NCBI GenBank assembly: GCA_964450735.1
Contig: CAYVDC010000005.1
Span: 22,628 to 86,627 of the forward strand
Origin: an uncultured Candidatus Saccharibacteria bacterium
Lineage (GTDB): Bacteria; Patescibacteriota; Minisyncoccia; Phycocordibacterales; UBA9973
DNA: 64,000 nucleotides
Direction: 5' to 3'
Shown: positions 978-64,000 of the stretch, in pieces
Position numbering within the stretch: position 1 is the stretch's first letter
How the letters are laid out: each line of letters begins with the position of its first letter
The notes under the pieces: generated by a model
The model's database searches: none
Told to the model about the DNA's origin: nothing
Seen by the model: only the letters and a program-made list of their open reading frames with translations
Translations under genes and position numbers: made by a program

Positions 978-1099
978 CCACCTATGGCGATGAGATGCTC
1001 ATGGCGCGTCGGCGCACTTTTGAGCGGAGCACAAAGGTGCCCGATCAAAAGTGCGCCGTAAGCGTTCTCCCAGAACTTCATCCCATTTCACCACCTAGG
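978..1099 (+). repeat. Copy 1 of a conserved structured intergenic element of about 95 nt (long imperfect hairpin)
   Basis: About 90% identical to 5375-5471 and to the reverse complement of 26448-26545; 14-bp stem CGGCGCACTTTTGA/TCAAAAGTGCGCCG around an inner stem-loop. Confidence 0.6.
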
Positions 1100-1398: not shown

Positions 1399-1809
1399 AT
1401 GGTTGATACAGATCTCACATCCGTCATCAACAAGACAAAAGGCAAGCTCCCAAGCTTGCCTTTTGTCGAAATGAAAGAAAAAATCCTCGGCAAAGGATAC
1501 GAGCTTTCGATTTCCTTTGTCAGCCCAAAAGAATCACAGAAGCTCAATCTCACCTACCGCGGAAAAGACAACCCAACAAACGTACTTAGTTTCGAACTTT
1601 CAAAAAAATCAGGAGAACTCGTTCTCCAACTTGCATGCGTGAAGCGCGATGCAAAAAAATTCAACATGGATTACCCCAATTTCTTGGCATTTTTACTTAT
1701 CCACGGAATGCTGCATTTGAAAGGAATGCAACATGGTAGTACAATGGAGAAACAAGAGGCTCGTTTCAAAAAAATATTTGGCATCACCGAAGTCGCTTCG
1801 AACAAATAA
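1399..1809 (+). CDS. ybeY: Endoribonuclease YbeY (rRNA maturation factor)
   Basis: HGMLHLKGMQH zinc-binding motif (H-x3-H-x5-H), about 136 aa. Confidence 0.85.
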   Translation: MVDTDLTSVINKTKGKLPSLPFVEMKEKILGKGYELSISFVSPKESQKLNLTYRGKDNPTNVLSFELSKKSGELVLQLACVKRDAKKFNMDYPNFLAFLLIHGMLHLKGMQHGSTMEKQEARFKKIFGITEVASNK

Positions 1810-3072: not shown

Positions 3073-3750
3073 CTAATTTCCATTCTTATTTAAGAATTTT
3101 TGGGGTTCTCGAACCTCCAGTTTCTTTTTTTTCTTTTTTGTTAAGACAAGCAACTTATCGAATAATGCATTCAGTTCTTTTTGTACTTTTGCAAATTCTG
3201 TTTTCTTAACAAACACCGGAGCAAAGTTATCCTTAATTCTACCTAGCTCATCATACGAACGCAGACCCAATCTTTTGGATTCATACCCGATTGAAGAGAA
3301 ATTGTAATGTAGTGCATTTCCAGTAGAAACCTGGAACCTAGATGCCAAACTAAATAATCCGCCACCTACAGCGAAAGAGGTAAATTGAGTTGAAATATCG
3401 GTATACCATACTTCGCCTTTCTTTAGTTCTGGATGTGTAAAAGGTTTTTTCTTTTTTTTCAATTCCTTTTGGTTTTGCAAATATTCGGACTTTTGCACAA
3501 AGATTGGCCTGTTTGATTCTATTACATCCCCTTTAGAGTTGTATGCTGTAACTCCTAAGCGTTTAGTTTTGAAGCCACAATCATCAAAGTTTTGTTGCGC
3601 GGCTTTTCTCTTATTACTATCAAACATTATAAAGCCCGACTCTGACTTTGTATGTACATATTCACTCGAAATGTTTGTAAGCCACATTTCACCTCGTTTT
3701 AATTCAGGATGAACGAATGGTTTTTTCTTGGTTGGTTTTGGTTTTTTCAT
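3073..3750 (-). CDS. Hypothetical lysine-rich protein built from two tandem domains of about 95 aa
   Basis: Internal duplication KKKPF[VT]HPELK[RK]GE[MV]W...SKRLG...P[IV]FV.K[ST]E[YF].K.QKEL; very AT-rich; inserted on the opposite strand between ftsA and ftsZ. Confidence 0.5.
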   Translation of the reverse strand: MKKPKPTKKKPFVHPELKRGEMWLTNISSEYVHTKSESGFIMFDSNKRKAAQQNFDDCGFKTKRLGVTAYNSKGDVIESNRPIFVQKSEYLQNQKELKKKKKPFTHPELKKGEVWYTDISTQFTSFAVGGGLFSLASRFQVSTGNALHYNFSSIGYESKRLGLRSYDELGRIKDNFAPVFVKKTEFAKVQKELNALFDKLLVLTKKKKKKLEVREPQKFLNKNGN

Positions 3751-3962: not shown

Positions 3963-5168
3963 ATGGCAAAAATTAACCCAGACATCGAAACAATCGCACG
4001 AATCAAAGTCATCGGAGTCGGTGGATCAGGCAAAAACGCCTTGAACCACATGATTTCATCAAAAGTCCGCAACGTCGAGTTCATTGCAATGAACACCGAT
4101 ACGCAGGACCTTCACAATTCCCTCGCAGAAAAGAAAATCCACCTCGGCAAGAACTTGACCAAGGGTCTTGGTGCTGGAATGAATCCTGAAGTTGGAAAGC
4201 GTGCTGCCGAAGAAACAAAAGCTGAAGTTCAGGATGCAATCAAAGGCGCTGATATGGTTTTCATTGCTTGTGGTATGGGTGGCGGAACTGGAACAGGTGC
4301 TGCTCCGATCGTTGCTCGCGCTTCAAAGGAACAAGGCATCCTCACTGTTGGTGTTGTCACCAAGCCGTTCTTCTTCGAAGGAAACCAGCGCATGCGCATT
4401 GCTGAGTCTGGACTTGCTGAACTCTCAAAGGAAGTCGATGCAATCATCGTCATTCCTAACGACCGCCTCCTCGCTATTTCTGGAAAGGATACTTCTCTCA
4501 AAGATGCATTCGCACTCTGCGACGATGTTCTCCGCGATGCAGTAGAAGGTATCTCTGACCTCATTACTACTCCAGGTATCATCAACGTTGACTTCGCCGA
4601 TATTCGCGCGATCATGGCTGATGCTGGTACTGCGCTTATGGGTATTGGTTCTGCTTCTGGTGAAAACCGAGCAGTTACTGCTGCAACTGAGGCTATCAAC
4701 TCTCCTCTCCTCGACATTTCAATCAATGGCGCACGTGGCGTACTCTTTGCAATCTCTGGTTCTGATGATCTCACTATGCACGAGATTCAGGAAGCTGCTA
4801 AAGTCATCACTGAAGCTATCGACAAGGATGCAAAAGTTATCTTTGGAACTATCCATGATGAGCGCCTCAAGAAAGGCGAAGTCAAAGTCACTGTTATCGC
4901 AACTGGATTTGCTGGCGAACTTCCAAAGAAATCCCTCTTCACTGATCGTGAAGTATTCCAGTCAGTAAAAGAAGTTGTTACTCCTCCTATCTCAAAGCCA
5001 ACTCCTGTCGCTGAAGAAAAGAAAGAAATCAACAATTCTCTTCCTCCGACAAACGAGTATGTCAAAAAGCCGACTGAAACTATCATCATCGAAGACGACT
5101 CATTCCTTGACGACGCTGGCGAAGATTGGAGCGCAGTTCCTGCATTCCTCCGACGACCTAAAAAATAA
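3963..5168 (+). CDS. ftsZ: Cell division GTPase FtsZ
   Basis: GVGGSGKNA and GMGGGTGTGAAP tubulin signature (GGGTGTG). Confidence 0.95.
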   Translation: MAKINPDIETIARIKVIGVGGSGKNALNHMISSKVRNVEFIAMNTDTQDLHNSLAEKKIHLGKNLTKGLGAGMNPEVGKRAAEETKAEVQDAIKGADMVFIACGMGGGTGTGAAPIVARASKEQGILTVGVVTKPFFFEGNQRMRIAESGLAELSKEVDAIIVIPNDRLLAISGKDTSLKDAFALCDDVLRDAVEGISDLITTPGIINVDFADIRAIMADAGTALMGIGSASGENRAVTAATEAINSPLLDISINGARGVLFAISGSDDLTMHEIQEAAKVITEAIDKDAKVIFGTIHDERLKKGEVKVTVIATGFAGELPKKSLFTDREVFQSVKEVVTPPISKPTPVAEEKKEINNSLPPTNEYVKKPTETIIIEDDSFLDDAGEDWSAVPAFLRRPKK

Positions 5169-5177
5169 GATTTTAAA

Positions 5178-5205
5178 AGACCGCCTGTGTGGCGGTTTTT
5201 TTATT
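5178..5205 (+). terminator. Rho-independent terminator after ftsZ
   Basis: ACCGCC-tgtgt-GGCGGT hairpin followed by a T-run. Confidence 0.7.
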
Positions 5206-5225
5206 TGTGGTTATTTGGAATTATG

Positions 5226-5471
5226 TTCTGGGAGAGCGCACCAGCAGTAGTTTCCTGACTTGCTCACGCTGCGTCAGGAGAACTACTGCTTCGCGCCCTG
5301 TGCATCTCATCACCATACTCATTGGCAATCACTACCTTTACGGTAAAAACATCTAAGTCACTTGCCACCTATGGCACAGAGATGTTCATGGCGCGTCGGT
5401 GCACTTTTGAGCGGAGCACGGATGTGCCCGATCAAAAGTGCACCGTAAGCGCTCTCCGAGGACTCAAATCC
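5226..5471 (+). repeat. Copy 2 of the intergenic structured element, composite: 17-bp hairpin, linker module, then 95-nt core
   Basis: GCAGTAGTTTCCTGAC/GTCAGGAGAACTACTGC hairpin; module cgccctgtgcatctcatcacc...ttacggtaaaaa shared with 26521-26580; core 5375-5471 matches copy 1. Confidence 0.6.
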
Positions 5472-5523
5472 CAATATTAATCTATTTTTGTATTCAAACG
5501 ACCACATGATACAATAGCACTCT

Positions 5524-6447
5524 ATGAACGACCTGATCATTATTGGTGGCGGACCGGCAGCATGTGCTGCGGCGGTTTACGCTTCACGAAAAAGACTTAA
5601 AACTGTACTGCTTGCTTATGAGTTTGGCGGACAATCTACCGTATCTGAAGACATCCAAAACTGGATTGGCACACCTCATATTTCAGGCGCTGATTTAGCC
5701 AAGTCTTTGAAGGCTCACGTTTTTGAATACAAAGCAGACATCCTCGAAGTTCGCGAAGGACAGAATGTAGCAAAAATCGAAAAGGTTGGCGAAACATTCA
5801 AAGTAACCACCGACGCAAACGAATCATTCGAAGCCAGAAGTGTGCTTGTCTGCAGCGGCTCAGGACGACGAAAACTCGAGGTTCCCGGTGCAGCTGAATT
5901 TGAAAACAAAGGCCTCACCTACTGCGCATCATGTGATGGTCCGCTTTTTGCCGACCAAGACGTCATTGTTGTCGGAGGAGGAAACGCTGCCTTCGAATCA
6001 GCAGCCCAGCTTCTCGCCTACTGCAAATCAGTAACGCTCATCAACCGCAGCGAAAAATTCCGCGCAGATGAAATCACTATCGAGAAACTTTCAAAGAATC
6101 CAAAACTCCGCCTCATCACCAATGTAGAAATGAAAGCTGTGACCGGCGAACGATTTGTGAACGGCATGGATATTGTCCACACCAAAGACGGTACAGCTGA
6201 ACACATCACTGCAAACGGTATCTTCATCGAGATCGGACAGATCCCAAACACTGACTACGTAAAAGGCTTTCTAGACCTCGACAAAGGCAACAAGATCATC
6301 ATAGACCCAATGACGCAGCAAACCTCTGTAAAGGGCGTATGGGCTGCTGGAGACGTTACTAACGGCCTCTACCACCAGAACAATATCGCTGCTGGAGACG
6401 CGGTGAAGGCTCTCGAAGATCTCTACGTAAACTTAACTTCAAAATAA
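5524..6447 (+). CDS. trxB: Thioredoxin-disulfide reductase
   Basis: IIGGGPAACAAA FAD site, CASCDG redox-active disulfide, VVGGGNAAFE NADPH site. Confidence 0.85.
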   Translation: MNDLIIIGGGPAACAAAVYASRKRLKTVLLAYEFGGQSTVSEDIQNWIGTPHISGADLAKSLKAHVFEYKADILEVREGQNVAKIEKVGETFKVTTDANESFEARSVLVCSGSGRRKLEVPGAAEFENKGLTYCASCDGPLFADQDVIVVGGGNAAFESAAQLLAYCKSVTLINRSEKFRADEITIEKLSKNPKLRLITNVEMKAVTGERFVNGMDIVHTKDGTAEHITANGIFIEIGQIPNTDYVKGFLDLDKGNKIIIDPMTQQTSVKGVWAAGDVTNGLYHQNNIAAGDAVKALEDLYVNLTSK

Positions 6448-7263: not shown

Positions 7264-7335
7264 TGATCCCACGGAGAGTCGAACTCCGGTTAACGGATTG
7301 AAAACCCGCTGTCCTAACCACTAGACGATGGGACC
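7264..7335 (-). tRNA. tRNA-Glu (anticodon UUC), no encoded CCA
   Basis: Reverse-strand cloverleaf GGTCCCA/TGGGATC acceptor stem, anticodon loop TTTTCAA; near-identical to 37770-37844. Confidence 0.85.
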
Positions 7336-14192: not shown

Positions 14193-15440
14193 TCAATACA
14201 CTTCCCCCATATACGGCAGCGGCAGGTTCCAAATATACGCATCGCGGCTTGTCTGTTCATCGCGCTCAACTTTTCTCCATGATACTGAGCCTAAACTTGC
14301 AGCCAGGTTGATTGCACCCGTCCCAAACCGCGCACGGATCTGGTCCACGGCGTGCAGTATTTCATTTTTCTCCAAAACTTTTTCCTGCGAGCCGAACAGA
14401 TCAAACTGAAGGTCTTTATTTTCCCGGAGCTCCATGACAGTAATTCCCGTTGCGCGATACATCATTCCCCGTTCATGCAGGCCCGTAATTTCTTTTTCGA
14501 GATAGGCCAGCATGTCACTCGGATTGTTCGTATGTTTTGGAAATCGCGTCCATGCAGACGTATAGCCTCTCAAACCATGTTTCCAGAATATCGAAGCTGC
14601 GCCGGCATACTGTCCGCTTTCTCGCAATCGCATACAGATGATTTCTATATTTCGGGAAAGTTCGGAACGCATGAAAGCAATATCGCTCGTCGCGTGGCTG
14701 AACGTGCGCACGGCCTGAAACGATTTCTGGACTTGATGCGATCCACCAACACGCACCGGCATGACGCTTCGGCAATTCAATTCATGCCACATTTCTTTGA
14801 TTGGCATGGCAAATTTTTTGATGTCAAAATCATTCATTCGTGCGAAGTCATATGCATACTGCCAGCCGCGATTGCGGAATTGCTCGCCAAGCCGCCAGCC
14901 AATGCCCCAGATATTTCCAATTGGAATTTTCTTGAGCGTTTCAATCACTTGTTCATCAAGCAAGACAGTACAGCCATCAGGCTTCTGTAATTTAGAGGCA
15001 ACTTTTGCCAGCACTTTTGTACTTGCTAATCCAAATGAAAACGTAATACCAAGCTCTCGCTGAACGGTAGTTTTGATACTGCGAAGCATTGCTTCCCACG
15101 AACCGTATTTCTTCATGTCTTCCTCTGAAAATTCTGCAAAGCATTCATCGATACTGTAGTGCTCGACTCGAGAGGTAAAACGCTTCATGACACTGTACAA
15201 TTTTTCCGAGTACATGTGATAGAGCTCAAAATGCGCATTCAGGATCGTGACCTGCGGAAACTCCCGCTTTATTTTAAAAATCGGCATGGCGCGATGAATA
15301 CCCAACGCTTTCGCTTCGTATGTCATGGCGCAAGCGATACCGCGGTCGCCTCCGACAACGACCGGTTTGCCTTTTAAGTTCGGGAATCTGGCCACCTCGC
15401 AGGCAGCAAAGAATCCGTCTCCATCTACATGCAAGATCAT
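14193..15440 (-). CDS. Y-family translesion DNA polymerase (DinB/UmuC-like)
   Basis: N-terminal ILHVDGDGFFAACE with catalytic Asp pair, SIDECF acidic motif; 4-nt overlap with upstream lexA. Confidence 0.85.
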   Translation of the reverse strand: MILHVDGDGFFAACEVARFPNLKGKPVVVGGDRGIACAMTYEAKALGIHRAMPIFKIKREFPQVTILNAHFELYHMYSEKLYSVMKRFTSRVEHYSIDECFAEFSEEDMKKYGSWEAMLRSIKTTVQRELGITFSFGLASTKVLAKVASKLQKPDGCTVLLDEQVIETLKKIPIGNIWGIGWRLGEQFRNRGWQYAYDFARMNDFDIKKFAMPIKEMWHELNCRSVMPVRVGGSHQVQKSFQAVRTFSHATSDIAFMRSELSRNIEIICMRLRESGQYAGAASIFWKHGLRGYTSAWTRFPKHTNNPSDMLAYLEKEITGLHERGMMYRATGITVMELRENKDLQFDLFGSQEKVLEKNEILHAVDQIRARFGTGAINLAASLGSVSWRKVERDEQTSRDAYIWNLPLPYMGEVY

Positions 15441-15442
15441 GA

Positions 15443-16024
15443 CTAATATTTACGGACTACTGCTTTGACCACGGCGGCAATACGCAGGCCTTCTTTGGGG
15501 TATATCGCCTTGTAGCGCTTGTTTGCAGGCTCAAGATGAGAAACACCACGTTCTGTGCGCAAATACTTCATGGTCCACATTCCATCGACTTCCGCGATCA
15601 CAATCTCACCAGGTTTGGCAGTTTCAGTACGTTCAACAATAACCAAATCGCCTTCTTTGATACCGGCATCATCCATCGAGTCGCCTTTTACTTTGAGCAT
15701 GAAGCTAGCGTCGCGATTGTCTATCAAAAAGTCATCGAGCGTTACCGTATCAAGCAAGTTTTCTTCGCCGGGAGTTGGAAAACCGGCCTCAACCAAGCCA
15801 AGGACTTTCAATGGGCCTTTCTGGAACATAATTTCATTTGGAATCATGCGGCCGCTTTTATCTTTGGAAAGAACTCCCATTGAGCAGAGATGCGAAATGA
15901 TGCGATGGGCAGAATCCTTGGAACGAAGCCCAAAAATGCGCGCGGCTTCTGAGTATGACGGCATGCGGCGCTGGCTTTTGTAAAAATCGGCCAATTTTTT
16001 GATGTAGGAAGCTTCGTTATGCAT
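15443..16024 (-). CDS. lexA: LexA repressor (S24 peptidase with N-terminal winged HTH)
   Basis: wHTH SYSEAARIFGL..AHRIISHL; VEAGFP Ala-Gly cleavage site; GDSM serine and downstream Lys of the S24 dyad. Confidence 0.9.
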   Translation of the reverse strand: MHNEASYIKKLADFYKSQRRMPSYSEAARIFGLRSKDSAHRIISHLCSMGVLSKDKSGRMIPNEIMFQKGPLKVLGLVEAGFPTPGEENLLDTVTLDDFLIDNRDASFMLKVKGDSMDDAGIKEGDLVIVERTETAKPGEIVIAEVDGMWTMKYLRTERGVSHLEPANKRYKAIYPKEGLRIAAVVKAVVRKY

Positions 16025-22365: not shown

Positions 22366-25143
22366 ATGGAAAACCCTCCAAACATTCCGGAAAAGTTCCT
22401 CAAGGCCTATGATGCTGCGGCTACTGAAAAAGATGTGTATCAGCGCTGGGAAGCCAGCGGCTTTTTTAATCCAGACAAATGCATAGAAGCTGGCGTCACT
22501 GCCCCCGATGCAAAGGCATTCACTATCATGATGCCTCCTCCGAACGTCACCGGCGTTCTTCACATGGGACATGCCATGATGCTCACCCTCGAAGACATTA
22601 TGATCCGATTCAAGCGAATGCAGGGCTACAAGACATTATGGCTTCCAGGAACTGACCACGCCGCAATTGCAACGCAATCAAAAGTAGAAAAAGAAATTCA
22701 AAAAAAAGAAGGCAAGTCTCGCCACGATCTCGGGCGAGAAGAATTGTTGAGCCGAGTGAATGCGTTTGCCCAAGACAGCCACGACACTATTGTCTCGCAG
22801 GTAAAAGTGATGGGCGCATCATGTGACTGGTCACGAGAGGCCTTTACCCTTGATGCTCCTCGCAATCGCGCGGTAAACACCATGTTCAAGAAAATGTACG
22901 ACGATGGATTGATCTATCGCGGACATCGCATCGTCAACTGGGATCCAAAAGGCCAAACAACTATCGCTGACGATGAAATCGTATACGAAGAGCGAAAGTC
23001 AAAGATGTACACATTTAAGTACTCAAAAGACTTCCCTATCTCGATCTCTACTACTCGACCTGAAACAAAGGTTGGTGACTCTGCGGTTGCAGTTCATCCC
23101 GAAGACCCTCGATACCAGGAATTTATCGGAAAAGAGTACGATGCAGTATTCTGCGGAGTTCCAATCCATATCAAAATCATTGCAGATGAATCGGTAGAAA
23201 AAGACTTTGGCACTGGCGCACTCGGCGTTACTCCTGCTCATTCGATGACAGACTGGGAAATCGCTGATCGTCACAACCTTCCACGCAATCCTGTCATCAA
23301 TGAATACGCAAAAATGACCGTTGGTGGAGAGAATATTAAAGGGAAAAAGACGACCGAAGCACGCGAAGTCATTGTTCAATGGTTGCGCGATGAGGGTTTG
23401 CTTGAAAAAGAAGAAGACGTCACTCAAAACATTGGAACTGCTGAACGAACCGGCGGCATTATTGAGCCGTTGCCGAAACTTCAGTGGTTTGTAGACGTAA
23501 ACAAGGAGTTCGAACTTCCTCACTCAAATCTCACCGGAATTCCAAGTGGATCAAAAACTACATTCAAAGAAATCATGCGCAAGACCGTCGAAAGCGGACA
23601 GATCAAAATTCTGCCTGAGTATTTCGACAAAACATATTTCCACTGGATCGACAATTTGCGCGACTGGTGCATCTCACGACAGATTTGGTACGGACACCGC
23701 GTGCCAGTGTGGTATGACGCAGAAAAGAAAGAACATCTTCCAAAAAAGATAACTCTTTTGCTTGCTCGGCACGGGGAAAGCGAAGCTAATGCCAACGACA
23801 TATTTAGCGGCGGCAATTTTGACAGCCCGCTCACTCAAAAAGGAATCGATCAAGCGCATGAACTCGGCAAGAACTGCAAGACAATGAAAATCGACGGCGT
23901 TCTTTCATCGGCAATGAGCCGCAGCAAAGACACTGCGAAGTTTGCTTGCGAGGAACTCGGTATCAATCCTACCTCGGTCATTGAAATTCCTGAACTGCAT
24001 GAAGTTAAAAGCGACATGGACGGAAAGCCGAAGACAAAAGACCACTTCCGATTGAGCCAATTGATTCGTGAAGGAAAGGGAGAAACGATTGAACAAATAA
24101 AAGACCGTGCGGATGCGGCGCTTGCGAAAATTTCTGCCCTCGACGAAGGCACGTATCTCGTTGTTGCTCATAATGCATTCAATGCCTGCCTCCAAGCCCG
24201 CATCATGGGGATGGACGGAGAAAAAATTATTCAGCACTGGGAACATGTTGGTATCCGAGATAATGGCTCGGTAATGGAAGTTACTCTCATTGTTAATCCT
24301 ACTGATCCAGAACTTAAACAAGATGAAGACACGCTCGACACTTGGTTTTCATCTGCTCTTTGGACATTCTCAACCCTCGGATGGCCTGACAAAACAAAAG
24401 ACTTGGAAATCTATCACCCAACCGATGTTCTTGAAACTGGATACGAGATCCTTTTCTTCTGGGTTGCCCGCATGATCCTCATGACTGGCTACGCACTCGG
24501 AGACATTCCATTCCACACCGTATACCTGCACGGTACTGTTCGAGACGGCCAAGGACGCAAAATGTCCAAATCACTCGGCAATGGAATCGATCCGCTCGAC
24601 ATCGCTGCAAAATACGGCGCTGACGCGGGACGTATGGCTCTTGTTGTTGGAACTGCAGCTGGAACTGACTCAAAAATTTCTGAAGACAAAATCAAAGGTT
24701 ACAAGAACTTCTGCAATAAGCTCTGGAACATTACACGATTCATTCTTTCCAACACAGAAAATGTCACTCTCGATGAATCCTTCGGCGCATGGAGCGAACA
24801 AGACACAAAACTGATCGCGGAATTCAATACCATCAAAGCAGAAGTCACCCGAGAATATTCTGAGTACAAATTCCATATCGTTTCTGAAAAATTGTATCAC
24901 TATGCATGGCACAGCCTCGCTGATGTGATACTTGAAGACAGTAAAAAAATATTTACCGAAGGCACCGATGCTGAGAAAGCTTCGCGAGCACAGTTCTTGC
25001 TTGCAACACTCTACGATCTCTTGAAGCTTCTCCATCCGCTCATGCCGTTTGTTACCGAAGAAATTTGGAGTTTGCTTCCTACACAGGGTCGACTCTTAAT
25101 GGTAACAAAGTGGCCTGCATTGGCCGAGCAGCATGAATCCTAA
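22366..25143 (+). CDS. valS: Valyl-tRNA synthetase carrying an inserted histidine-phosphatase domain
   Basis: HIGH motif PNVTGVLHMGHA, KMSKS motif, WYGHRVPVWYD and QDEDTLDTWFSSALW blocks; insert at residues about 458-648 has an RHGESEAN signature; no C-terminal coiled coil. Confidence 0.95.
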   Translation: MENPPNIPEKFLKAYDAAATEKDVYQRWEASGFFNPDKCIEAGVTAPDAKAFTIMMPPPNVTGVLHMGHAMMLTLEDIMIRFKRMQGYKTLWLPGTDHAAIATQSKVEKEIQKKEGKSRHDLGREELLSRVNAFAQDSHDTIVSQVKVMGASCDWSREAFTLDAPRNRAVNTMFKKMYDDGLIYRGHRIVNWDPKGQTTIADDEIVYEERKSKMYTFKYSKDFPISISTTRPETKVGDSAVAVHPEDPRYQEFIGKEYDAVFCGVPIHIKIIADESVEKDFGTGALGVTPAHSMTDWEIADRHNLPRNPVINEYAKMTVGGENIKGKKTTEAREVIVQWLRDEGLLEKEEDVTQNIGTAERTGGIIEPLPKLQWFVDVNKEFELPHSNLTGIPSGSKTTFKEIMRKTVESGQIKILPEYFDKTYFHWIDNLRDWCISRQIWYGHRVPVWYDAEKKEHLPKKITLLLARHGESEANANDIFSGGNFDSPLTQKGIDQAHELGKNCKTMKIDGVLSSAMSRSKDTAKFACEELGINPTSVIEIPELHEVKSDMDGKPKTKDHFRLSQLIREGKGETIEQIKDRADAALAKISALDEGTYLVVAHNAFNACLQARIMGMDGEKIIQHWEHVGIRDNGSVMEVTLIVNPTDPELKQDEDTLDTWFSSALWTFSTLGWPDKTKDLEIYHPTDVLETGYEILFFWVARMILMTGYALGDIPFHTVYLHGTVRDGQGRKMSKSLGNGIDPLDIAAKYGADAGRMALVVGTAAGTDSKISEDKIKGYKNFCNKLWNITRFILSNTENVTLDESFGAWSEQDTKLIAEFNTIKAEVTREYSEYKFHIVSEKLYHYAWHSLADVILEDSKKIFTEGTDAEKASRAQFLLATLYDLLKLLHPLMPFVTEEIWSLLPTQGRLLMVTKWPALAEQHES

Positions 25144-26392: not shown

Positions 26393-26399
26393 ACAATAC

Positions 26400-26436
26400 A
26401 AAAGAGCGGCGCCTTCGGCGCCGCTCTTTTGTATTT
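26400..26436 (+). terminator. Rho-independent terminator after hsp20
   Basis: AAGAGCGGCGCC-ttcg-GGCGCCGCTCTT followed by a T-run. Confidence 0.75.
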
Positions 26437-26445
26437 AGATCGTTT

Positions 26446-26745
26446 ATGGATTTGAGTCCTCGGAGAGCGCTTACGGTGCACTTTTGATCGGGCACCTTTG
26501 TGCTCCGCTCAAAAGTGCACCGACGCGCCCTGAGCATCTCATCGCCTTACTCATTTGCAATCGAAACTTTTACGGTAAAAATTTCGATTGCAATACTCTG
26601 GGAAAGAAGATGCCAGGAGCACGGAGCCGAGTATGCCTGAAAGGGGCTTTCGGAGCGCGACCCGGCGCGAGAACGAGCCAAAAACTCAGCAGAGTTTTAT
26701 GGCGTCCCCTTTCAGGCATACTCGGCGTAGTGCCCTCCGAGAACC
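26446..26745 (-). repeat. Copy 3 of the intergenic structured element (core inverted), plus linker module and a large hairpin with 21-bp perfect arms
   Basis: Reverse complement of 26448-26545 matches the core of copies 1 and 2; module 26521-26580 matches 5291-5352; arms GCCGAGTATGCCTGAAAGGGG (26626-26646) and its complement (26706-26726). Confidence 0.6.
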
Positions 26746-26770
26746 CTAATCCAAACGACCTATGAGATCA

Positions 26771-37769: not shown

Positions 37770-37844
37770 GGTCCCATCGTCTAGTGGTTAGGACAGCGGG
37801 TTCTCAATCCGTTAACCGGAGTTCGACTCTCCGTGGGATCACCA
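37770..37844 (+). tRNA. tRNA-Glu (anticodon CUC) with encoded CCA
   Basis: Same sequence as the 7264-7335 tRNA except for the anticodon loop TTCTCAA; ends ACCA. Confidence 0.85.
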
Positions 37845-44956: not shown

Positions 44957-45086
44957 AAATGTTATTTTGTAACACCGCACACATAAGGAATTTTGAATCC
45001 GAGGAAACGCAGCCCGCCTTTGTGCTGCATATTGCGGGCGAACCCGCAGGATTAAAAATTACTTATGTGTAAGGTGTGCATGATTA

Positions 45087-47966: not shown

Positions 47967-49874
47967 TTATGAATAACGCTCAAACTGCGCTGTTAATTTT
48001 TCTACTTCGCTCTTTGGTCCATATACCAATACGCCGAGGTATTCAATATCGCTAAAGTCTTTTGATTTCGTCATTTCGATCACTTTTTTGTCGTTAGTAG
48101 TCTCAATCATTTCGCGAGTGAATTCATCTACCTCAAGCTTTGCTTCTTTTGCAGAATGAGCAAGGGACTGGAGGTCGCTCGAAGAAGAAGCTGATTTGAT
48201 GATGATTGCCTGTTTTGTATTGAGCTTAATCGAAACATTATCCTTGGAAGTGATGGTGTCTTGAGTGAACAATTCCTTGCCTACTCGCGCACCAAAGGCC
48301 GCATTGAGATGCGCAACGGTATTCATTTCCTGCCACTTTTCAAGATTGATGCCAGTATTCAAAACCGCAACAGCAACCATAGTTTCTTTTTTCTTTGGAG
48401 CACCTTCGCCTTTCGGACGCATAAGAGGAAACATCACTGTTTCGCGAATTGGCTTTCCTGCAAGGACCGCAAACATACGATCACCCACAGGAGCGGAGCC
48501 GAACGCTGGCGGCATACCATGTTCAAGCATTTCTACGAATTCCCAGTCAGGCATCATTGCTTCATCATCTCCGCGTTCAATAAGTTTCTGCTGTTCTTCG
48601 AAACGTGCGCGCTGATCGAGCGGATCATTGAGCTCAGAGAAGCTGTTAGAAAATTCGCTTCCAGCCATAATAAGCTGACAGCGTTCTACTGTCTCAGGAT
48701 TTTCTGGACGTGCCTTTGCGAGCGGAGAAACGAGCTTTGGATGGTTGGTAAGCCACACAGGACCAGCAATTCCCTTTCGGCAATACTTCCAGAGCGAGTC
48801 GATCATTCGTTCACGAGTTGCGCCTTCGTATTCAACACCGAGTTCTTCGAGCTTGTCTGCAAGTTCTTTTTCGGAAGCCGTAAGCACGTCTACGCCGGTC
48901 TTTTCCAAAACGTATGGCACATATTCGATAACATCCCATTTTGGAGATAGATCGACATCGTAGCCTTTGACATTGAATTGCAATGTTCCAAAAGTCTTTT
49001 GGACGACGTCTTTGACCATTCGTTCAACGAGCTCCATGCCGCCTTTGTAATCCATGTATGCTGCATAGCACTCCATGTTGGTGAATTCCTGAAGATGTTC
49101 AGGAGATGAGCCTTCATTGCGGTATACGCGGCCAATCTCAAATACTTTCGGAAATCCTGCTGCAAGAGCGCGTTTCTGCCAGAGTTCTCCAACTGAGATA
49201 CGCATGTATACATCCATGCTGAAATCATTGTGATATGTTTTGAATGGTCGAGCTTCCGCACCTCCGGTAGTTGTCTCAATGGTAGGTGTTTCAATTTCCA
49301 GGAAACCTTCATTCAGCATGAATTCACGTGCTGACCTCCAAAAGAGCGATCGCTTTTCAAGAAGCGCGCGGAGATCCGCGTCCATGAGGATATCAAGATA
49401 TCGTTTGCGGTAGCGTTCATCTGGGTCGGTAATACCATGCCATTTTTCTGGAAGTGGAGCGAGTGTTTTGGTTCCCATTTTCCAATTTGAAACAAGGATA
49501 GATGGCTCCCCTCGTTCTGTAGTAAAGAGCGTTCCGGTGACCTGGATAAAATCCCCAAGGTCTACGGTTTCAGTGAATAATGAAAAGATTGATTCTTCAA
49601 TATCGTCTTTTTTGAAAACAGCCTGAAATTTTGCCGTGCCGTCATTGAGCACTGCAAAGAGGATCGCTCCTTGTCCGCGGAGGGCCATAACACGGCCAGC
49701 AAGCGTGATTGGGGCTTTGATATTATCAAACTGCGCTCGAACGTCAGCCAAGCTTTTGTCGCGGTCAATATGCGCTGGGTATGATTCCATGCCAGCGGCA
49801 GTAAGTTTCTCAAGTTTTTCCAACCGGTTCGCGCGTATTTCTTCGAGTGATGCCATATGGGACGAGTATAGCAA
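47967..49874 (-). CDS. lysS: Lysyl-tRNA synthetase (class II) with a C-terminal extension of about 147 aa
   Basis: OB anticodon-binding N-domain, class II motifs (FLEIETP; GGAEARPF; ELCNAFTE-like region), core ends ...MFPLMRPK at about residue 488, then an extra domain. Confidence 0.9.
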   Translation of the reverse strand: MLYSSHMASLEEIRANRLEKLEKLTAAGMESYPAHIDRDKSLADVRAQFDNIKAPITLAGRVMALRGQGAILFAVLNDGTAKFQAVFKKDDIEESIFSLFTETVDLGDFIQVTGTLFTTERGEPSILVSNWKMGTKTLAPLPEKWHGITDPDERYRKRYLDILMDADLRALLEKRSLFWRSAREFMLNEGFLEIETPTIETTTGGAEARPFKTYHNDFSMDVYMRISVGELWQKRALAAGFPKVFEIGRVYRNEGSSPEHLQEFTNMECYAAYMDYKGGMELVERMVKDVVQKTFGTLQFNVKGYDVDLSPKWDVIEYVPYVLEKTGVDVLTASEKELADKLEELGVEYEGATRERMIDSLWKYCRKGIAGPVWLTNHPKLVSPLAKARPENPETVERCQLIMAGSEFSNSFSELNDPLDQRARFEEQQKLIERGDDEAMMPDWEFVEMLEHGMPPAFGSAPVGDRMFAVLAGKPIRETVMFPLMRPKGEGAPKKKETMVAVAVLNTGINLEKWQEMNTVAHLNAAFGARVGKELFTQDTITSKDNVSIKLNTKQAIIIKSASSSSDLQSLAHSAKEAKLEVDEFTREMIETTNDKKVIEMTKSKDFSDIEYLGVLVYGPKSEVEKLTAQFERYS

Positions 49875-61548: not shown

Positions 61549-61662
61549 CTTTTTAGGATCTTTGGATTTCTCGTAATTCCAACAAATCTGGCAGCGACTG
61601 CCAACATACTCGTGCCCGCGGCTGCAGACTTTTCCTTCAGAATTTTTTTTCTGCTTGCTCAT
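61543..61662 (-). CDS. Candidate 39-aa zinc-ribbon-like small protein, start overlapping the upstream stop (TAATG)
   Basis: MSKQKKNSEGKVCSRGHEYVGSRCQICWNYEKSKDPKKK; C-x3-H-x6-C-x2-C; below the ORF-track length cut-off; found by reading the strand. Confidence 0.3.
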   Translation of the reverse strand: MSKQKKNSEGKVCSRGHEYVGSRCQICWNYEKSKDPKKK

Positions 61663-64000
61663 TAGTGAGAATTTACGAATGATCTGGTAAGCGGTCCGAA
61701 GTACCCAATGGCAGGCGCAATTTTGTTCGCTTTCTGGAATTTAATCAAGGCGGCAGCTGTCTTTGCACCAAAGGTGGTAACCTCGTTACCGGCTGAACCC
61801 ATTCCAGAAGTTGCTATTGGAAAACCATGAGTGTTTAAGTACTTTTGCAATTGTAGTACTTCCTCACTGCCTGAACCAAGCTTCAACGTTTGAGTAAATA
61901 CAAACTTGGCAGCTGATGGCTGTGTATTTAGGGATGTAATAGTAGCAGGCTGTAATGTAGTTAAAGTTCCTACTGACGGTGTCTGACTTGAAACGAATTG
62001 TACGGGAACACCGCCACCGTTCGTTGTATTTGCCTGTGCAGCAATACCAACACATCCAGAGACGACACCTCCATCTATGACTGACCAATTATATACCCCC
62101 ATCAAACGAGCTCGAGACGCTGATGCCAAGCAATACTTGCTTTGTCCTCCGTCAAAAGAAACATTTGATCGGAGATTTTGGCTTGCCCAAGAGCTCAGCA
62201 TGGCATCATAATTTGTCCGTGAAAGCGTAACTCCAGTAAACATATCAACCATATTGGTAACATCAGCGACATCCCACGAGCTCAAATTCTGGTCAAAATC
62301 TGTGGTGAGATAAAACATGCTGTCCATGTTTGTAACATTACTAGTATCCCACGAGCTAATATCCTGATTGAAGTGCGTGTCATACGCAAACATTGCATAC
62401 ATATCTGTTGCAGCACTTACATCCCAACCGCTGATGTCTTGATTGAAACTTGTGCCTTGAAATGCGTTTCCAAAATATGTCACATGGCTGACATCCCAAT
62501 TATCCAGTGGCTGATTAAAAAGCTCAGCACCCATAAACAGTGTCCCCATTCCAATGACGCTTGAAGTATCCCAATTATTGAGTGGCTGGTTGAATGCATT
62601 CGCCTCATAGAACATTCCGCCCATTCCGGTAACATGTGACACATCCCATGAATTGAGCGGCTGGTTGAATGCATTTGTGCTCATAAACATTGAAGACATA
62701 TTCGTCACATTGGCAGTATTCCAGTTGCTTATGTTTTGGTTGAATACGGAAGCTCCCATAAACATGCCATCAAAACTTGTCGCACTTGATACATCCCAGT
62801 TATTGAGCGGCTGGTTGAATGCAGCTGCACCGGTAAACATCGAATCAAATCGAGTAACATGAGAGACATCCCAAGAGTTGAGCGGCTGGTTGAATGCGGC
62901 ATCAGCGTAAAACAAACCAATCATATTAGTCACATTTGAAGTGTCCCACGATGAAATGTCTCCATTGAATGCTGTTCCTTGAAAAACCCCGATCATTGAA
63001 ATGATAGATCCAGTATCCCAACCGCTCAGATCTTCGGTAGTGACTCCGCTGTCTCGAAGCATATATGTCATATCTGTGACGCCGGAAAGGTCGGGAGCAT
63101 CAGTGGCGGTAATTGCAAGATTGGTACATCCAAAAAATGCACCAGCCATATTTTCCCATGCTATCGTGCCCCATTGATCAACTGAGAGTATTTTATTTTT
63201 ATCACCAGCATATGCAAACGTTATCGCTGGAAAAACACCAGAAATTGATACTGTGTATGTACCGGGCGTCACATAGGTATGTGTAATTGCCCCTGTAACA
63301 CCAGTATCTGTATTTGAATCTCCCCAATCAACATTGTAGTTATACGTAAGACCATTTGTTGTTGGAATAGTGATCTGATTGCTGCTGGATACTCCAGGAT
63401 TGTCTGTTTTCCAAGTAGTAATAAATTCTGTTGCAGGAGCATCAAGGTCCGTAATTACAATCTCATCAACATAGTCACGATCAACTGCAGCTCCATATCC
63501 AGCTGTGTATTGAACAAGACCAGATGGGTAGGTCGCATCTGTTGCAGAACCAAGCAGCGTATAGGTAACGCCGTCATCTGAATAGTAAAAACTCAATGAA
63601 GTGCCAATTGCGGTTGCTTTAAACCAGCGAGGCTGTGATTTCGGCAAACTACCACTCCACAGCGGAGTATATGTTCCTGAAGAAACTCGCCAAATATATA
63701 CGTTGCTTGAATCATAGACATGGAATAAATATCCCATTCGCGCACCTGCTGAGTTTACTACGCTCGTATCAATTGCTTGGGCGCGAAGAGTAAATCCACC
63801 GCGACCAAGATTGTTCGAGTAAGCCTGTTTCCATATTACTGATTGATCCGCTGAACCAGCAAAGTTATCAAATAATATTCCGGCAATAACGCCAGTTTGC
63901 GTAACAGCTCGTAATGAATTACCCAATGTTGGTTCATTTTGAACATCAAAAGTTCCTGCAGTTACTGTTGTATTTGCAGGAACTTGGCCGATTGTATCAG
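61662..64000 (-). CDS. Large surface protein with PKD domain, DUF285-type repeats and C-terminal peptidoglycan-binding domain; 5' end lies outside the window
   Basis: Frame open to the window edge; PKD-like VDWGDSNTDTG..PGTYTV; about 12 repeats FNQPLN[NS]WDVS.VT.M; C-terminal PG_binding_1-like LQLQKYLNTHGF... Confidence 0.7.
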   Translation of the reverse strand, partial: DTIGQVPANTTVTAGTFDVQNEPTLGNSLRAVTQTGVIAGILFDNFAGSADQSVIWKQAYSNNLGRGGFTLRAQAIDTSVVNSAGARMGYLFHVYDSSNVYIWRVSSGTYTPLWSGSLPKSQPRWFKATAIGTSLSFYYSDDGVTYTLLGSATDATYPSGLVQYTAGYGAAVDRDYVDEIVITDLDAPATEFITTWKTDNPGVSSSNQITIPTTNGLTYNYNVDWGDSNTDTGVTGAITHTYVTPGTYTVSISGVFPAITFAYAGDKNKILSVDQWGTIAWENMAGAFFGCTNLAITATDAPDLSGVTDMTYMLRDSGVTTEDLSGWDTGSIISMIGVFQGTAFNGDISSWDTSNVTNMIGLFYADAAFNQPLNSWDVSHVTRFDSMFTGAAAFNQPLNNWDVSSATSFDGMFMGASVFNQNISNWNTANVTNMSSMFMSTNAFNQPLNSWDVSHVTGMGGMFYEANAFNQPLNNWDTSSVIGMGTLFMGAELFNQPLDNWDVSHVTYFGNAFQGTSFNQDISGWDVSAATDMYAMFAYDTHFNQDISSWDTSNVTNMDSMFYLTTDFDQNLSSWDVADVTNMVDMFTGVTLSRTNYDAMLSSWASQNLRSNVSFDGGQSKYCLASASRARLMGVYNWSVIDGGVVSGCVGIAAQANTTNGGGVPVQFVSSQTPSVGTLTTLQPATITSLNTQPSAAKFVFTQTLKLGSGSEEVLQLQKYLNTHGFPIATSGMGSAGNEVTTFGAKTAAALIKFQKANKIAPAIGYFGPLTRSFVNSH
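62232..63164 (-). repeat. In-frame tandem repeats of about 66-69 nt (22-23 aa) inside the surface-protein gene
   Basis: Protein-level repeats F[ND]Q.[LI][SN].WD[VT]S.VT.M.[SG]MF repeated about 12 times. Confidence 0.6.

Follow-up and report, generated by a model that had tools for sequence, protein, structure and literature searches.

Two inverted repeat units between ftsZ and trxB

The spacer between the ftsZ stop codon and the trxB ATG (5168 to 5524) in the 64,000-nt stretch of DNA analyzed here (the window) contains, in this order, an intrinsic terminator, a repeat-derived segment (5215–5474), and 49 nt of ordinary promoter DNA. The terminator (5175–5201, plus strand), located by a terminator scan, forms the left context of the segment and lies outside the repeat. 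The original prediction had placed a composite element between this terminator and the trxB start at 5524, where it indeed lies, and had divided it into a separate hairpin, a linker module, and a 95-nt core. We re-derived the features of the segment in the window and checked their coordinates against the sequence. The segment consists of two copies of one hairpin-bearing repeat unit, placed head to head in opposite orientations (hereafter pair 2).

The first copy (unit w2a, 5215–5349, minus strand) was delimited by unit alignment, leave-one-out profiles, and folding; it is complete and takes up both the predicted hairpin and the predicted linker. Read on the minus strand, its 3' tail and 3' box (GCGCTCTCCCAGAACATAATTCCAA, 5215–5239) pair with 5449–5474 in the folds and constitute the left terminal inverted repeat of the pair; the box itself (5225–5239, minus strand, box pattern) has 0 mismatches. 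The variable hairpin of w2a (class H2, 5244–5289, minus strand) has arms GCAGTAGTTTCCTGAC (16 nt) and GTCAGGAGAACTACTGC (17 nt), which form 16 bp with one bulged base around a 13-nt loop. A hairpin is thus present where a perfect 17-bp one had been announced (5241–5290), only not a perfect one. Its counterpart in locus L013 of a related genome (7124–7163) has the identical bulged C and a different outer stem sequence. The 5' box of w2a (GAGATGCACAGGGCGCG on the minus strand, 5292–5308) also has 0 mismatches. The 60-nt linker was said to recur almost verbatim at 26521–26580; it does recur, at 86% identity (50 of 58 positions, 5292–5349 against 26524–26581), which falls short of verbatim. Its first 17 nt (CGCGCCCTGTGCATCTC) agree at 14 of 17 positions with the reverse complement of 5379–5395, the inverted 5' end of the core, as had been noticed. 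Because both boxes lie on the minus strand (5225–5308) in family order and enclose the hairpin, the hairpin and linker are not extra parts; together with 5215–5239 they make one complete minus-strand unit of the same family, whose hairpin slot is filled by a sequence different from the hairpin of the 95-nt core.

The second copy (unit w2b, 5337–5474, plus strand; box patterns, fold, and self-alignment) contains that core and comprises a 5' box (5379–5395), a hairpin of class H1 (5397–5445), a 3' box (5449–5463), and a tail ending at 5474. It is 88% identical to 976–1077 and 91% complementary to 26448–26549. The 5' ends of w2a and w2b have in common a 13-nt junction palindrome, TTTAC-G-GTAAAAA (5337–5349), evident in the sequence. 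Module and core had been proposed to pair into a large hairpin, and the predicted RNA fold of 5226–5471 does pair them, within a large structure that takes the form of a four-helix junction (−121.9 kcal/mol, z = −11.6, 0 of 200 shuffles as good). The DNA fold of 5215–5474 reaches −73.6 kcal/mol (z = −10.9).

A repeat family with a conserved frame

Pattern searches of the window yielded five matches to the 5' box GAGATGnnCAnGGCGCG (four exact and one with two mismatches) against 0.3 expected, and five to the 3' box GCGyTCTCCsAGrAC (four exact, the fifth, in unit w3b, with two mismatches) against 0.5 expected. The two-mismatch 5'-box match (23659–23675) is unrelated sequence, and the 5' box of w3b is too diverged for the pattern. 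The order 5' box, hairpin, 3' box occurs at 992–1076 (plus), 5379–5463 (plus), and 26456–26540 (minus), which are the three cores of the original prediction, as well as on the minus strand at 5225–5308. A diverged version at 26607–26744 (plus) encloses a 21-bp hairpin that carries a branched insert of 59 nt. Profiles of the 5' arm and 3' tail built with both pair-2 units omitted recovered the 5' arms of the two halves at 5346–5292 (minus, E = 2.8e-8) and 5338–5395 (plus, E = 4.8e-6) and the 3' tails at 5449–5474 (plus, E = 5.6e-5) and 5239–5214 (minus, E = 2.6e-3); profiles from units of other genomes alone likewise re-found the window units. With box counts above expectation and both halves recovered by leave-one-out profiles, chance is excluded for the pair-2 repeat.

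Only ten units of the family are known, and the four or five genomes that hold them are close relatives: the window has five, L013 and L077/L078 two each, and L084 one. Besides pair 2, the window has a solo unit in the priA–rpsU spacer (w1, 952–1086, plus; H1 hairpin at 1010–1058) and a second pair (pair 3), whose left half is w3 (26446–26581, minus; H1 hairpin at 26474–26522) and whose right half is w3b (26569–26756, plus; H3 hairpin at 26626–26726); w1 and w3 were located by box patterns, self-alignment, and fold, and w3b by box patterns, unit alignment, and fold. The modules therefore recur together, as a modular repeat should, at the third window copy and in L013, L077/78, and L084. A unit is ~135 nt long, or 188 nt in the long-hairpin form, and is laid out as a TTTAC-initial 5' arm, the 5' box, a closing helix GCGC:GCGC, a variable imperfect hairpin of 15–21 bp, and the 3' box with its tail. 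All ten start with TTTAC and end in ..A(T)TCC(C)AA (tail ..ATCCCAA). In the four head-to-head pairs the two units overlap in the palindrome TTTAC-S-GTAAA (5337–5349 and 26567–26581 in the window; also in L013 and L077), and the solos w1 and L084 have their 5' boundary at TTTAC without a partner.

Three hairpin classes fill the frame: H1 (GGTGCACTTTTGAGCGG...), a class to which we also assign the H1-type hairpins of L077 and L084, though diverged; H2 (..TTCTCCT.., in which one C is bulged); and H3, long and branched, with a 21-bp perfect stem in w3b. The pairs combine them as H2/H1 (window pair 2), H1/H3 (window pair 3), H2/H3 (L013), and two diverged H1-type hairpins (H1'/H1'' in L077/78). The window copies of the H1 units are dispersed, 88–91% alike over ~100 nt, with unrelated flanks. 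Profiles of the 5' and 3' modules (nhmmer) and a hairpin-plus-box scan detected no copies beyond these, either in the window or among the related loci scanned. The mraZ–mraW spacer of the window (44972–45077) holds a 29-nt inverted repeat, 86% complementary with arms 48 nt apart, whose inner part GGAATTTTGAATCCGAGGAAACGC loosely resembles the family 3' tail; the family profiles do not detect it.

Pairing is kept while sequences differ

Hairpin pairing is conserved while the copies differ in sequence. Closing helix and main hairpin formed in all nine units folded (L084 was not among them), and each of the nine hairpins tested was more stable than its own shuffles (z = −5 to −9). Folds of the pairs reached z = −11 to −15, with a four-helix junction available to the pair and the 3' boxes predicted to pair as ~25-nt terminal inverted repeats. 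In an alignment of the six H1-type units, 87% of cells were paired, compared with 74% in shuffles, a level reached by 0 of 500 shuffles; both sides had changed in 10 of 20 pairs (0 of 500 shuffles as high), and controls in which the partner was slid gave 23–42% paired. The H3 stems of w3b and the second L013 unit (L13b) differ at 7 of 21 positions, each doubly compensated. The closing helix has changed from GCGC:GCGC to GCAC:GTGC in both H3 units, with L084 as a G.T intermediate, and the boxes of w3b have diverged to ..GCACG and GTGCCCTCC, a compensatory change in that helix. Imperfections, too, are retained by class and on one strand only: the 5' arm of H1 hairpins has a G.A mismatch, that of H2 hairpins a bulged C. 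Covariation of this kind would be expected from a functional RNA; in a DNA palindrome, compensatory change can also come from template-switch "quasi-palindrome correction", with no selection needed. Comparison of the hairpin arms with the window and the related loci returned no other matches and hence no indication of a guide/target relation. A conserved frame around a variable, always-paired hairpin amounts to a natural experiment on the upkeep of structure in DNA or RNA palindromes.

Presence and absence at orthologous spacers

Searches with FtsZ and Gdh placed the window among CPR/Patescibacteria, with Candidatus Nomurabacteria and Pacebacteria as the best-named relatives. Genomes in this group are small and usually reported to contain little mobile DNA. 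In the data examined, units were confined to genomes whose FtsZ or Gdh is 96–98% identical to that of the window, and none appeared in the loci of relatives at 87–94% identity. Presence is polymorphic at orthologous sites. The ftsZ–trxB spacer holds the pair in the window, one minus-strand solo in L084 (FtsZ 96%), no element in L017/18/19 (FtsZ 98%; 76 nt with terminator and promoter only), and an unrelated ORF in L013, L014, and L020. The priA–rpsU spacer holds the solo in the window and a pair in L013, and is empty in L084 and L014. Between hsp20 and gdh, the window and L077/78 (Gdh 98%) each have a pair, with different hairpins, and in the more distant L079/80 and L081 the genes abut (8 nt and 1 nt). 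This spacer polymorphism, combined with the 88–91% identity of the dispersed H1 units, is the signature of DNA that moves or is being actively exchanged.

Each of pairs 2 and 3 follows an intrinsic terminator, which at pair 3 is a terminator-shaped inverted repeat. The ftsZ and hsp20 terminators have completely different stems in strains with 98% identical proteins (window 5175–5201 against L017 7983–8008; window 26395–26435 against L077 ~5155–5185). As terminator stems are also replaced between 98% relatives, fast local evolution is general in these spacers.

Several other spacer features were seen alongside the family. Intergenic hairpins turn over much faster than genes in these genomes. 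Relatives have a second kind of spacer hairpin (L017 4050–4125, priA–rpsU; L022 11268–11345, ftsZ–trxB) with shared flanks ACGGnACGnCGG...GG.AT.AAAATTGC / GCAATTTT..AT.CC, and the ftsZ–trxB spacer of L023 (11244–11333) has yet another hairpin, of 20 bp. We considered whether the H3 insert is a nested copy of the L017/L022 hairpin family, for which the alignment gives no support. Just after rpsU, at the ybeY start, lies a perfect 12–15-bp palindrome, GACAAAAGGCAAGCT-nnnn-AGCTTGCCTTTTGTC (window 1434–1467; L013 7758–7789, L014 8305–8338, L017 4486–4519, L020 8274–8307, L022 8282–8315, L023 7480–7509). It falls inside the called ybeY ORF in most relatives, where it would encode ..KGKLPSLPF.., and unlike the other intergenic hairpins its sequence is kept across all relatives. 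The ftsA–ftsZ and ftsZ–trxB spacers are hot spots of strain-specific minus-strand ORFs of 125–250 aa without a Pfam family (window 3073–3750, minus; L013 9381–9836 and 11395–12144; L014 11297–12010; L020 11248–11664). Public gene calls also run across units, as a 55-aa ORF in L077 (5035–5202) and a 151-aa ORF in L013 (7253–7708, from the unit into rpsU). Both are probably annotation artefacts, spurious calls for which the units account.

The trxB core promoter lies outside the element

The original prediction had the 3' end of the element as the only sequence upstream of trxB and a possible carrier of its promoter. Between the element and the ATG, however, lie 49 nt (5475–5523), and these contain an extended −10 motif (TGATACAAT, 5507–5515, plus strand) 8 nt before the ATG and a likely −35, TTGTAT (5488–5493, by sequence). 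The arrangement TGcTACAAT-N8-ATG is present in L017/18/19, which have no element, in L084 with its solo unit, and in L013 with the unrelated ORF upstream. A promoter scan of 5100–5600 found none, inside the element or elsewhere in that interval. With the motifs outside the element and the −10 arrangement kept in element-free relatives, the element is not the source of the core promoter; it sits in an untranscribed gap from terminator to promoter, and an element driving trxB can be dropped as a false lead. A TGnAATACT motif, considered as an internal unit promoter, occurs only in w3b and L77R and fails the promoter scan. We also looked for terminators inside the units and found none convincing.

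Taken together, the features originally described were largely confirmed and their interpretation was partly supported: the modular repeat stands, the three modules and the promoter do not.

Searches for an enzyme and for copies elsewhere

No 2–9-bp direct repeat, as a target-site duplication would leave, abuts pairs 2 and 3, the L013 and L077 pairs, or the solos w1 and L084. Among the ~40 window ORFs there was no transposase, RAYT, TnpB, or integrase, and Y1_Tnp had no match among these ORFs or the called genes of ~20 related loci, the window holding five units in 64 kb. A lone integrase-family gene (Phage_integrase) was found in the relatives' loci, on L021, ~5 kb from the ftsZ–trxB spacer of a locus without a unit. 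Neither the window nor the loci yielded an autonomous insertion sequence with matching ends.

Elsewhere among the window genes, a Y-family DNA polymerase with IMS domains (14193–16024, minus) adjoins an S24 LexA/UmuD-like peptidase, an SOS-mutagenesis-type gene pair, and a class II aminoacyl-tRNA synthetase of the Asp/Lys/Asn type (47967–49874, minus) has a C-terminal DUF2000 domain. Four copies of a 113-nt segment (62485–62897), 64–76% alike with start spacings of 75, 150, and 75 nt, lie inside a 754-aa minus-strand ORF (61662–63926) that looks like a repeat-containing protein.

Rfam 15 at the gathering score detected only five tRNAs in the window. A permissive search of 5150–5560 produced noise only: its best match had E = 0.3 and 18.5 bits, the gathering score being 90 bits. 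Two near-identical tRNA genes (7264–7335, minus; 37770–37841, plus) are 99% complementary over 73 nt, inverted and 30 kb apart. Exact-pattern scans, defined by the two boxes with a free hairpin, were run on genome, metagenome, and viral collections and returned 12 matches in GTDB species genomes, 53 in JGI metagenomes, and 2 in IMG/VR viral contigs; all lie in DNA of 52–75% GC without the hairpin and are thus chance matches. Viral scans with the H3 loop insert and with part of the H1 hairpin gave 0 matches each. To stand in for ORFs mis-called across the element, we searched with its translations; these had 0 matches among 5.8 billion proteins, and against 1.84 billion representatives they had one irrelevant repeat-translation match (P0241).

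Interpretation

Our favored reading, which we hold with slightly better than even confidence, is that 5215–5474 comprises two head-to-head units of a lineage-specific palindromic repeat, which is a form of non-autonomous selfish DNA and not the source of the trxB core promoter. The anatomy of the unit and the family membership of both halves are direct observations from the alignments and profiles; the retained pairing, the variable occupancy of orthologous spacers, and the position of the promoter beyond the element are likewise observed. We infer mobility as the cause of the polymorphism, a mechanism that depends on single-strand hairpins, and an enzyme acting in trans. The units may spread or be exchanged among intergenic "safe" sites right after gene ends and terminators, and the single-stranded hairpin may be the feature required for propagation, as in REP/REPIN or IS200/IS605-type elements; a pair could fold into the four-helix junction as single-stranded DNA or RNA. 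If propagation needs that hairpin, the persistence of pairing through sequence drift would be accounted for. The family is young, apparently mobile, and specific to one CPR lineage.

The units could instead be structured RNAs, either sRNA genes or cis-acting 3'-UTR elements (mRNA stabilizers, RNase III sites, or terminator helpers) that were duplicated incidentally. The strong covariation with a G.U intermediate in the closing helix suits an RNA, as does the retention of the class-specific 5'-arm imperfections (the H1 G.A mismatch and the H2 bulged C). The w1 unit and the L013 pair directly follow priA with no terminator between, so these units would be transcribed, and REP-like repeats are described as thought to work as RNA elements in many genomes (PMC3733652). 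The RNA reading is nevertheless hard to square with the strong intrinsic terminators upstream of pairs 2 and 3 and of the L084 solo, with the lack of any promoter or terminator found in the units by scan, and with the lack of an Rfam match. Moreover, the units come and go at one spacer among near-identical strains and occur in both orientations relative to their neighbors. We consider structured RNAs possible though unlikely.

Distinctly less probable in our view is a more specific mobile scenario, an undescribed hairpin-dependent (single-strand) CPR element in which a frame would carry an exchangeable hairpin "cassette". TTTAC-S-GTAAA would recreate the insertion site on the opposite strand and so give rise to head-to-head dimers, and an unrecognized non-Pfam enzyme would move the units.

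Another possibility takes the pair, not the half, as the unit, that is, a classical MITE with ~25-bp terminal inverted repeats, a DDE transposase elsewhere, and solos as decayed halves. The pairs are 260–311 bp long and end in inverted repeats (GGAAT..GTYCTSGGAGAGCGC and its complement), with the inverted repeat continuing outwards to TTnTTTGGAAT, all features that such an element could have. None of the four pairs has a target-site duplication, however, the solos w1 and L084 share a clean TTTAC 5' boundary, and no transposase with matching ends was found. The halves also differ in hairpin class (H2/H1, H1/H3, and H2/H3; L077/78 has two diverged H1-type hairpins), which fits independent units better than the pair as the unit. 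We give this proposal little credence.

The same low probability attaches to non-mobile local palindromes, terminator-like spacers evolving in place, with complementarity upheld by template-switch correction and with copies dispersed by occasional recombination. Complete stem replacement in ordinary terminators between 98% relatives points in this direction, and so does the hsp20–gdh pair, which occupies one site in the window and L077 and yet is strongly diverged. Evolution in place does not readily account for three dispersed H1 units in one genome that are 88–91% identical over ~100 nt, non-palindromic boxes included, for non-palindromic 5'/3' modules conserved at unrelated loci in different genomes, or for spacers that are empty in more distant relatives (L014 at priA–rpsU; L079–L081 at hsp20–gdh). 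Three different modules with a trxB promoter at the 3' end are very improbable: although no other large feature lies as close upstream of trxB as the element, which could affect upstream promoter context or ftsZ read-through, the −10 (5507–5515) and likely −35 (5488–5493) lie outside it, the −10 and leaderless-type ATG spacing are kept in element-free relatives, no promoter was found in it by scan, and the modules resolve into two units of one family.

On our preferred reading, a young family with fair local density (five units in 64 kb) and no visible transposase reflects ongoing intergenic turnover in a small CPR genome. It offers a handle for strain typing and a lead towards the enzyme moving the units.

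Comparison with known repeat systems

REP/BIME/REPIN sequences are the closest analogues, and MITE-type repeats are also close. A REP/REPIN system is recognized by a flanked RAYT (Y1 tyrosine transposase) gene and >100 copies per genome. The present family differs from the proteobacterial REP/RAYT systems in its CPR host and in that no RAYT was found in the window or related loci. REP/BIME sequences are described as intergenic imperfect palindromes whose close units alternate in orientation and form larger folds (PMC2817692, PMC3733652), and as mosaics of palindrome types with conserved linkers, located downstream of genes and between unidirectional or convergent ORFs (PMC2817692, PMC3733652, PMC3337134). 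The four pairs here share with REP/BIME/REPIN the inverted orientation, the larger fold, and the mosaic of types with linkers, and the family shares with REP/BIME an intergenic position downstream of genes and the lack of target duplication. A REP is by definition an imperfect palindrome of 20–40 nt, one end of which bears a conserved GTAG or CGTC tag that stays unpaired (PMC3733652), whereas the units here are 135–190 nt long with hairpins of 40–50 nt (101 nt for H3). Only the three H1 copies have CGTC ahead of the stem; the other classes have CGAA, CGGC, CGGA, or CGAC. The conserved part differs as well: here the non-palindromic frame is conserved and the palindrome varies, and in REPs it is the reverse.

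MITE-type repeats (Correia/NEMIS, ERIC/IRU, and Rickettsia palindromic elements) resemble the family in their size of 100–300 bp, potential for long imperfect hairpins, intergenic dispersal, and strain-to-strain presence or absence, and the pair ends are MITE-like in being inverted copies of 3' box and tail that pair in folds. Unlike in MITEs, there is no target-site duplication, no parent insertion sequence was found in the window or loci, the half-unit is seemingly an independent module, and the hairpins are exchangeable.

With IS200/IS605 PATEs and HUH transposition the family has in common the lack of target duplication, hairpins with a conserved asymmetric imperfection, and a fixed TTTAC 5' boundary in all ten units. 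PATEs are recognized by the lack of a TIR or TSD, insertion 3' of a fixed site of 4–5 nt, and a TnpA Y1 enzyme. IS608 inserts 3' of TTAC, and we treat this likeness at the boundary as a lead only. Unlike the PATEs, each unit has one large hairpin instead of sub-terminal hairpins at both ends, and neither TnpA nor TnpB was found among the window ORFs and related loci. Integron attC sites likewise combine a conserved frame with a variable, structure-conserved hairpin and asymmetric extrahelical bases, but the units lack R''/R' core sites (RYYYAAC / GTTRRRY), having GCGCG.. and ..GCGCTCTCC as hairpin flanks, and have neither cassette ORFs nor an integrase; their neighbors are the housekeeping genes ftsZ, trxB, hsp20, gdh, priA, and rpsU. 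The H3 stem was also considered as a group II intron domain V and rejected, since its GAAAG lies in the stem and not in the loop.

Since the family departs from the REP definition in size, tag, and conserved part, and from the MITE definition in target duplication, we file it in the broad class of small palindromic intergenic repeats, REP/BIME- or MITE-like, as a new lineage-specific member, unusual in that the frame is conserved and the hairpin within it varies.
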